DNA of 24,000 nt from assembly GCA_045643825.1 (NCBI GenBank), contig JAZRFV010000084.1, positions 47,946 to 71,945 of the forward strand. Direction: 5' to 3'. This document shows, in pieces, positions 11,516-13,141 of the stretch. The notes below the pieces were generated by a model. It saw nothing but the letters and a program-made list of their open reading frames with translations, was not told where the DNA came from and did not search any database. Positions within the stretch are counted from its first letter, which is position 1, and each line of letters begins with the position of its first letter. This stretch comes from Candidatus Scatosoma sp. GTDB taxonomy: Bacteria; Bacillota; Clostridia; Christensenellales; Borkfalkiaceae. Both the position numbers and the translations under genes were made by a program.

Positions 11516-13141
11516 TTAATACATACCGCCCATATCACCGCCAGGAGCCATAGGAGCAGGAGGGGTAGGGATATCGGTTACGATGCTTTCCGTGGTAAGC
11601 AAGGTTGCAGCAACGGAAGCCGCATTTTGCAATACGGAACGGGTAACCTTCGTAGGATCGATGATACCGCATTCTACCATATCGCAGTATTTGTTGTTCA
11701 ACGCATCAAAGCCGTAGTTGGTCTTTTTGGAGGAAAGTACCTTATCAACGATAACGGAACCATCCAAGCCTGCGTTCTTTGCAATTTGTCTGATGGGTTC
11801 TTCCAAAGCCTTCAAAACAATTGCCGCACCCGTCTTTTCGTCACCGTTCAAGCTTGCAACCAACTTTTTCACGGTAGGAACTGCAGAGAGGAGGGCGCTG
11901 CCGCCGCCGGGAACGTAACCTTCTTCAACTGCTGCTCTCGTTGCCGCCAAAGCATCGTCGATACGCAATTTCTTTTCTTTCATTTCAACTTCGGTTGCTG
12001 CGCCTACGCTGATAACTGCTACGCCGCCTGCAAGTTTTGCAAGACGTTCTTGCAATTTTTCACGATCGTAATCGGATTTGGTTTCAGCAATTTGCGATTT
12101 GATGGACATAATGCGTTCTTTAATCGCCATGACGTCGCCTGCACCGCCAACGATGGTGGTGTTTTCTTTGTCAACGCGTACGCTTGCCGCTCTACCCAAC
12201 ATATTGATGGTAACTTCCTTGAATTCGATGCCCAAATCGGAGGAGATAACTTCACCACCCGTAAGGATTGCGATATCACGAAGCATTTCTTTTCTTCTAT
12301 CACCAAAGCCAGGAGCTTTTACTGCAACGGAGTTGAATACACCCTTAAGCTTATTTACGATCAACGCCGCCAAAGCATCGCCTTCAACGTCTTCCGCGAT
12401 AATAAGGAGTTTAGCGCCTTGTTGTGCAAGGGGTTCGATTACGGGAAGAATTTCCTGCAAGCTGGAAATTTTCTTATCGGTGATCAAAATGTAGGGGTTT
12501 TCCATAACCGCTTCCATTTTATCGGTATTCGTTACCATGTATGCGGATGCGTAGCCACGGTCAAACTGCATACCTTCTACGGTAGAAAGCTCGGTGTTCA
12601 TAGACTTGCCTTCTTCTACGGTAATAACGCCGTCTTTACCTACGATTTCCATTGCTTTTGCAATCAAGCTACCGATTTCAGGGCTACCAGCCGAGATGGA
12701 AGCCGTTTGTTCAATGGCTTTGTTGCTTTCAACGGCTTTAGAGATGCCTTTGAGGTGTTCAACCGTCGTATCAACAGCCTTTTTGATTCCTTCCTTCAAG
12801 ATGATGGGATTAGCGCCTGCCGCAAGGTTTTTCAAACCTTCGCGAACGATTGCTTGCGCCAAAACAACAGCCGTCGTCGTACCGTCGCCAGCAACGTCGT
12901 TAGTTTTAGTGGAAACTTCCTTTACAAGCTGTGCACCCATATTTTCAAAAGGATCGTTGAGTTCGATTTACTTTGCGATCGTTACACCGTCGTTGGTGAT
13001 GAGGGGGGCACCGAATTTTTTATCAAGTACAACGTTTCTACCTTTGGGCCCGAGGGTAATTTTTACCGTATCTGCCAAAACGTTAACGCCTGATTCCAAT
13101 GCTTTTCTTGCGTCTTCGCCGTATTTAATCTGTTTTGCCAT
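11516..13141 (-). pseudogene. groEL: Chaperonin GroEL. It is full-length (542 codons) but interrupted by an in-frame TAA at codon 58 (plus-strand 12968-12970). The tracked ORF 11516-12940 is only the part from Met68 onward.
   Basis: The minus strand from ATG 13141 translates as [75 protein letters not shown]..., running on to the GGM-type tail DMGGMY. The RBS AAAGGAGAATAGACATG sits 19 nt after groES. GroEL normally has Glu at the stop position (AKEIEL). Confidence 0.85.

Follow-up and report, generated by a model that had tools for sequence, protein, structure and literature searches.

The closest described system is the canonical bacterial groES-groEL operon. The locus analyzed here lies in a 24-kb window (the whole stretch of DNA that was analyzed, 24,000 nucleotides) and shares with that operon a full-length match to TIGR02348, the GPKGRN and DGTTT motifs, a Gly/Met tail and an upstream groES gene of the same orientation, separated from groEL by a 19-nt gap that contains the sequence AAAGGAG. 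It differs from the canonical operon in a nonsense codon at position 58 of groEL, and in that a short conserved hairpin in the 5' untranslated region is found instead of a CIRCE element.

Three further kinds of system offer themselves for comparison. The nascent pseudogenes of recently host-restricted bacteria also show one premature stop in a frame that is otherwise intact, but the genomes in which they occur carry many disrupted genes, whereas here 23 of the window's 24 genes are undamaged and groEL itself is without relaxed selection. During genome decay, groEL tends to be one of the last genes lost. Stop codon reassignment and programmed readthrough (UGA in codes 4 and 25, selenocysteine, pyrrolysine) likewise involve an in-frame stop in a conserved gene. 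These systems use UGA or UAG, show many occurrences or dedicated signals and are conserved among relatives, none of which was seen here; to our knowledge, neither UAA reassignment nor programmed UAA readthrough has been established in bacteria. The errors of metagenome assemblies are similar to the present case in that the lesion is isolated and confined to one assembly, while the gene is intact in every relative and shows no decay. Compared with an error of the type found in the related contig L092 (described below), the difference is that a substitution rather than a gap or indel is present, and that its technical origin is presumed. The literature on premature stops in groEL yielded genome-decay papers only, with no direct parallel. 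The evidence presented below favours the view that the TAA is a single-base fault of the record (an error of base calling or consensus building, an artefact of DNA damage, or a minority or non-viable variant captured by the assembly), and a probability of roughly 0.68 was assigned to this reading.

Translation of the minus strand from ATG 13141 gave 57 codons of a typical GroEL N-terminus followed by TAA, after which the same frame continued for 483 codons to PGGDMGGMY and a double stop, TAA TAA, at 11516 (Table 1). This bears out the original prediction of an in-frame TAA at codon 58 of groEL (12968-12970). Its further statement that the gene shows no frameshift and no additional decay also holds, the stop being single and the frame intact to the GGM tail; no second stop or frameshift was detected when the whole frame was translated. 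The 484 codons which it had counted after the stop are a trivial miscount, the frame having 541 sense positions. The altered base is a G to T change on the coding strand, equivalent to C to A on the plus strand. When codon 58 was repaired to Glu, the resulting protein scored 816.6 bits against the TIGR02348 equivalog model (cutoff 582.1), the match extending over model positions 1-524 of 526, and could be aligned continuously with solved GroEL structures over residues 1-539 (9c0d, E = 2e-215). The repaired protein differs from database protein P0001 in a single residue. The characteristic motifs were located at residues 31-36 (GPKGRN) and 85-90 (GDGTTT), and the C-terminal tail, PGGDMGGMY, is rich in Gly and Met.

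An uninterrupted frame for a GroEL subunit of about 57 kDa was not found. The gene as written specifies a 57-aa fragment, corresponding to GroEL model positions 1-56, and a 474-aa fragment, corresponding to positions 67-524; translation would end with residue 57, and the gene would not yield a functional chaperonin. Reinitiation at Met68 was considered as a means of rescue and is unlikely. None of the motifs GGAG, GAGG and AGGA occurs in the 25 nt preceding Met68 (CGAACTCAACGATCCTTTTGAAAAT), unlike at the true groEL and groES starts, in agreement with the earlier claim that no Shine-Dalgarno sequence stands ahead of this codon. A product starting at Met68 would also miss the GPKGRN loop and the residue equivalent to Asp52, which, according to established GroEL structures, are needed for ATP binding and hydrolysis.

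A 488-aa open reading frame on the plus strand (11627-13093) runs antisense to groEL and crosses the site of the stop. It is a codon-usage shadow: the groEL sense frame contains zero TTA or CTA codons and one TCA (codon 17), which is the exact end of the antisense frame.

Table 1. Features of the groESL region, with coordinates given as positions in the window.
Feature	Position	Strand	Remarks
groEL (cpn60) reading frame	11516..13141	minus	541 codon positions + TAA TAA; one interruption, at codon 58
In-frame TAA, groEL codon 58	12968..12970	minus	Altered base is plus-strand 12970
groEL N-terminal fragment as encoded	12968..13141	minus	57 aa + stop; contains the GPKGRN nucleotide-binding loop
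groEL C-terminal ORF from Met68	11516..12940	minus	474 aa; without upstream ribosome-binding site
groES (cpn10)	13161..13448	minus	Intact, adjoins groEL upstream; NF001531, 129.5 bits (cutoff 96)
groESL promoter-like site	13500..13527	minus	TTGATT, 16 nt, TATAAT; conserved in relatives
Hairpin in 5' untranslated region	13467..13483	minus	GCCGAG-CAUUA-CUCGGC; just upstream of the groES Shine-Dalgarno sequence
Two-way terminator-like hairpin, groEL/spo0A	11467..11494	both	12-bp stem; T-runs on both strands

Related contigs covering codon 58 were 13 in number (L001 to L012 and L092). All 13 carry GAA at this codon, including those of strains with 96.4% identity in groEL, and Glu occupies position 58 in 120/120 of the closest database proteins. 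The original prediction, which had proposed a comparison with orthologues from sister genomes, held that GroEL has Glu at this position and that one GAA-to-TAA change explains the stop; both points agree with these counts. Based on a search with the C-terminal fragment, no truncated GroEL of about 474 aa exists among the best 120 matches (at least 89% identity), all of which are 541-542 aa in length with two exceptions. The first of these, P0121 (504 aa), was rejected as a truncated homologue, ten consecutive Ns in the scaffold accounting for its length. The other, P0122 (745 aa), contains an internal repeat and probably results from chimeric assembly, in which two different groEL genes were joined. 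Contig L092, with predicted products of 53 aa (1385-1546) and 504 aa (1501-3015), was considered as a second broken groEL of the clade and was also rejected, as the interruption is a 10-N scaffold gap and codon 58 reads GAA.

Pattern scans of JGI metagenomes at the site gave 0 matches with both the N-degenerate and the TAA-specific degenerate patterns, and an exact 38-mer had no match in GTDB genomes. No exact-protein record was found for the 474-aa or 57-aa GroEL fragments, for ADSL or for the 245-aa ScmC-like protein. The collections searched contained no independent copy of this exact strain confirming GAA.

The database proteins closest to this GroEL bear the label GroEL and are assigned to MAGs of uncultured Clostridia. 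Among species-representative genomes the nearest is a 'Candidatus Scatosoma sp.' MAG, the groEL of which is 94% identical at the amino-acid level and 83% at the nucleotide level. 'Candidatus Scatosoma' is listed under Clostridia incertae sedis, and the genus was named from chicken-gut metagenomes (PMC8035907). The nearest contigs, which derive from ENA metagenome assemblies, show 94-96% DNA identity and a common gene order over 16.5 kb; judging by the names of their samples (TONG22-1, XIEF21-1), they point to animal-gut surveys. The GTDB species genomes searched seem to include no representative, at this locus, of the species to which the window belongs.

The groEL genes of the window and of the intact contig L001 are 96.4% identical in nucleotide sequence. 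The 59 differing bases, out of 1626, comprise 57 synonymous changes, one missense change (A17S) and one nonsense change (E58stop). Changes private to the window were polarized with up to ten relatives, which left in groEL 11 synonymous changes, A17S and the stop itself; all 11 synonymous changes are situated downstream of the stop. The chance of observing 11/11 synonymous changes under neutral drift is about 1e-7 with uniform mutation and 2e-6 with the observed transition bias. Since every private change past the stop is synonymous, groEL was under purifying selection over essentially the whole private branch. Relaxed selection would be expected to leave missense changes, indels or additional stops after the lesion; none was present downstream of the stop, and the gene aligned without indels to four intact orthologues of equal length. 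A17S, which is also a G-to-T change, was examined as a sign of a locally error-rich stretch and rejected; it is an ordinary change because residue 17 varies naturally (T 46, A 45, N 18, S 2, others) and Ser is present there in other homologues. G>T is rare in the mutational spectrum of the lineage, accounting for 6/164 private synonymous changes, or 8/164 when the complementary C>A is included. Stops would be created by 7.3% of the possible G>T/C>A changes in groEL versus 3.2% of all single changes, making this the class likeliest to produce a stop in the gene.

These results bear on the explanation that the stop is a real and very recent loss of function, in which TAA would have replaced GAA as the majority base and the cells would survive by means of a cpn60/groEL paralogue or because GroEL is dispensable to them. 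The nonsense codon is clean in the sequence as given, the assembly otherwise looks accurate, and only 24 kb of the genome is in view, which leaves room for a paralogue. Several copies of groEL are present in some bacteria, and a few, the mollicutes, tolerate its loss. We nevertheless consider a real knockout unlikely. Selection on groEL is not relaxed, as described above, the private changes in groES are synonymous only (3 synonymous, 0 missense), and the TAA allele was found in no other assembly. Furthermore, a majority null allele of a highly conserved single-copy chaperonin would face strong counter-selection. Among the best 80 genome loci, a list that reaches down to about 60% identity, no genome appeared twice, and a 2.38-Mb Christensenellales contig gave one groEL locus; both observations tell slightly against a knockout and give a faint indication that groEL is single-copy in this group. 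GroEL is presumably essential in this lineage, as judged from its conservation and from model organisms. The earlier suggestion of a pseudogene covered by a second groEL copy is without support, there being no relaxed selection, no damage to groES or to the expression signals, and no related genome with two groEL loci among those 80.

According to another explanation the UAA is recoded and full-length GroEL is still made; the means could be a suppressor tRNA, programmed readthrough, ribosomal hopping or editing. What speaks for it is the sole oddity of the locus, a stop inside an otherwise perfect and presumably indispensable gene. Against it, TAA terminates 18 of the window's 24 genes, in four cases as TAAA, and in this respect the earlier reading of TAAA as a termination context was sound. 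An in-frame stop is absent from the other 23 genes. The stop was present in none of the relatives (13 contigs, 120 homologues), and therefore nothing has been selected to maintain it. Between gene positions 133 and 320 the window and L001 differ at the stop base only; as the surrounding approximately 187 nt match the intact L001 exactly, no stimulatory context has evolved. Folding of the mRNA at this site was not stronger than that of shuffled sequence (minimum free energy z = +1.11). No tRNA gene was identified in the 24-kb window, and no Rfam family was matched in it, including at the stop and at the leader hairpin. Ribosomal hopping from the AAG of codon 57 to the in-frame AAG of codon 74 was also considered and rejected; 17 invariant residues would be lost by it, and the sequence has not evolved any feature in its support. 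Recoding is contradicted by every test run, and the likelihood that full-length GroEL is made in this manner is close to negligible; recoding and a functional restart at Met68 are both disfavoured. It is highly improbable that the TAA is real, fixed and situated in the only groEL, with survival depending on UAA suppression (a suppressor tRNA with Glu, Gln, Lys or Tyr) or on GroEL dispensability.

A fault of the record is the most economical reading: the change is unique, strong selection has acted on the gene up to the present, and no compensating feature is in view. The real operon would be an ordinary groES-groEL operon with GAA (Glu) at codon 58 of groEL, belonging to uncultured gut Clostridia near 'Candidatus Scatosoma'. 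The T would have been introduced by a base-calling or low-coverage consensus error; alternatively, it could have arisen as a G-to-T change from oxidised guanine in the DNA, or as a rare non-viable read variant taken up by the assembler. In favour of a faulty record, the stop is private, no damage is seen in groES, in the expression signals or elsewhere in the window, and the lesion is isolated; in addition, the split groEL of the sister contig L092 also proved to be an assembly artefact. On the other side, the window otherwise looks like a clean assembly without frameshifts and gives no visible sign of a high error rate. The fault is most likely technical rather than biological. The stop is most likely not a working feature of the biology of this organism, and most likely no new biological mechanism is involved.

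The incorporation of a minority variant from within the population would be one form of such a fault. In this case the population would mostly carry GAA, while TAA would be restricted to a subclone or to damaged or dead cells, and the assembler would have taken the minority path. The related sequences are metagenome assemblies, in which a low-coverage consensus can fix minority bases, and the privacy and recency of the stop fit this equally well. However, low local coverage is required, since assemblers normally take the majority path, and from sequence alone the pattern is the same as that of a plain error. We regard such a variant as distinctly improbable, and the estimate behind this judgement is counted inside that for the faulty record rather than added to it. 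With respect to the four options which the original prediction had left open, error and population heterogeneity both fit all of the findings, while recoding and the covered pseudogene have fared as described above.

If the stop is an error, it is a matter of quality control only: annotation of the record would show groEL as a pseudogene, and the genome could be mis-scored by pipelines for genome completeness or marker genes that make use of cpn60. Were the stop true and this groEL the only copy, free-living Clostridia without functional GroEL or with UAA suppression would be noteworthy; nothing that was found points there. If it were real and fixed, the window would have caught the first step of UAA suppression or of GroEL dispensability.

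The protein encoded by groES was identical in at least 23 other contigs. Shine-Dalgarno sequences are present ahead of both groES (GGAGG) and groEL (AAGGAG), and of the expression signals (promoter-like site, Shine-Dalgarno sequences, terminator hairpin) those that fall within the aligned region are conserved. The promoter-like site upstream of groES may drive the operon, based on its match to the consensus. The CIRCE operator (TTAGCACTC-N9-GAGTGCTAA) was absent from the whole window, even with up to 3 mismatches allowed. The stem of the hairpin in the 5' untranslated region is kept in relatives; both arms are changed in L008 (GCUGGA..UUCAGC), and G-U wobble pairs occur in L005 and L007. This hairpin of the groESL leader (13449-13530) may be a lineage-specific heat-shock control element. 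On the other side of the operon, spo0A adjoins groEL and converges on it.

The other 23 genes in the window show no internal stop and no frameshift, and the coding density is 93%. MutS2, at the start of the window, was considered as a second truncated gene; this was rejected, since the frame stays open from base 1 and continues past the window edge. Over about 9 kb of coding sequence the changes private to the window comprise 164 synonymous, 26 missense and 1 nonsense changes, with 0 frameshifts. On the plus strand, positions 16127-19447 hold a conserved five-gene cluster which looks like one for peptide modification (RiPP-like). Its genes encode a small membrane protein of 54 aa, a 245-aa protein assigned to PF27840 (ScmC), a PqqD-like protein, a 156-aa protein and an ABC exporter; the literature on ScmC contained nothing useful. 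The 54-aa membrane protein has an acidic, aromatic tail (SSEYDDGEWTNNY), and 4 of its 10 private changes are missense.
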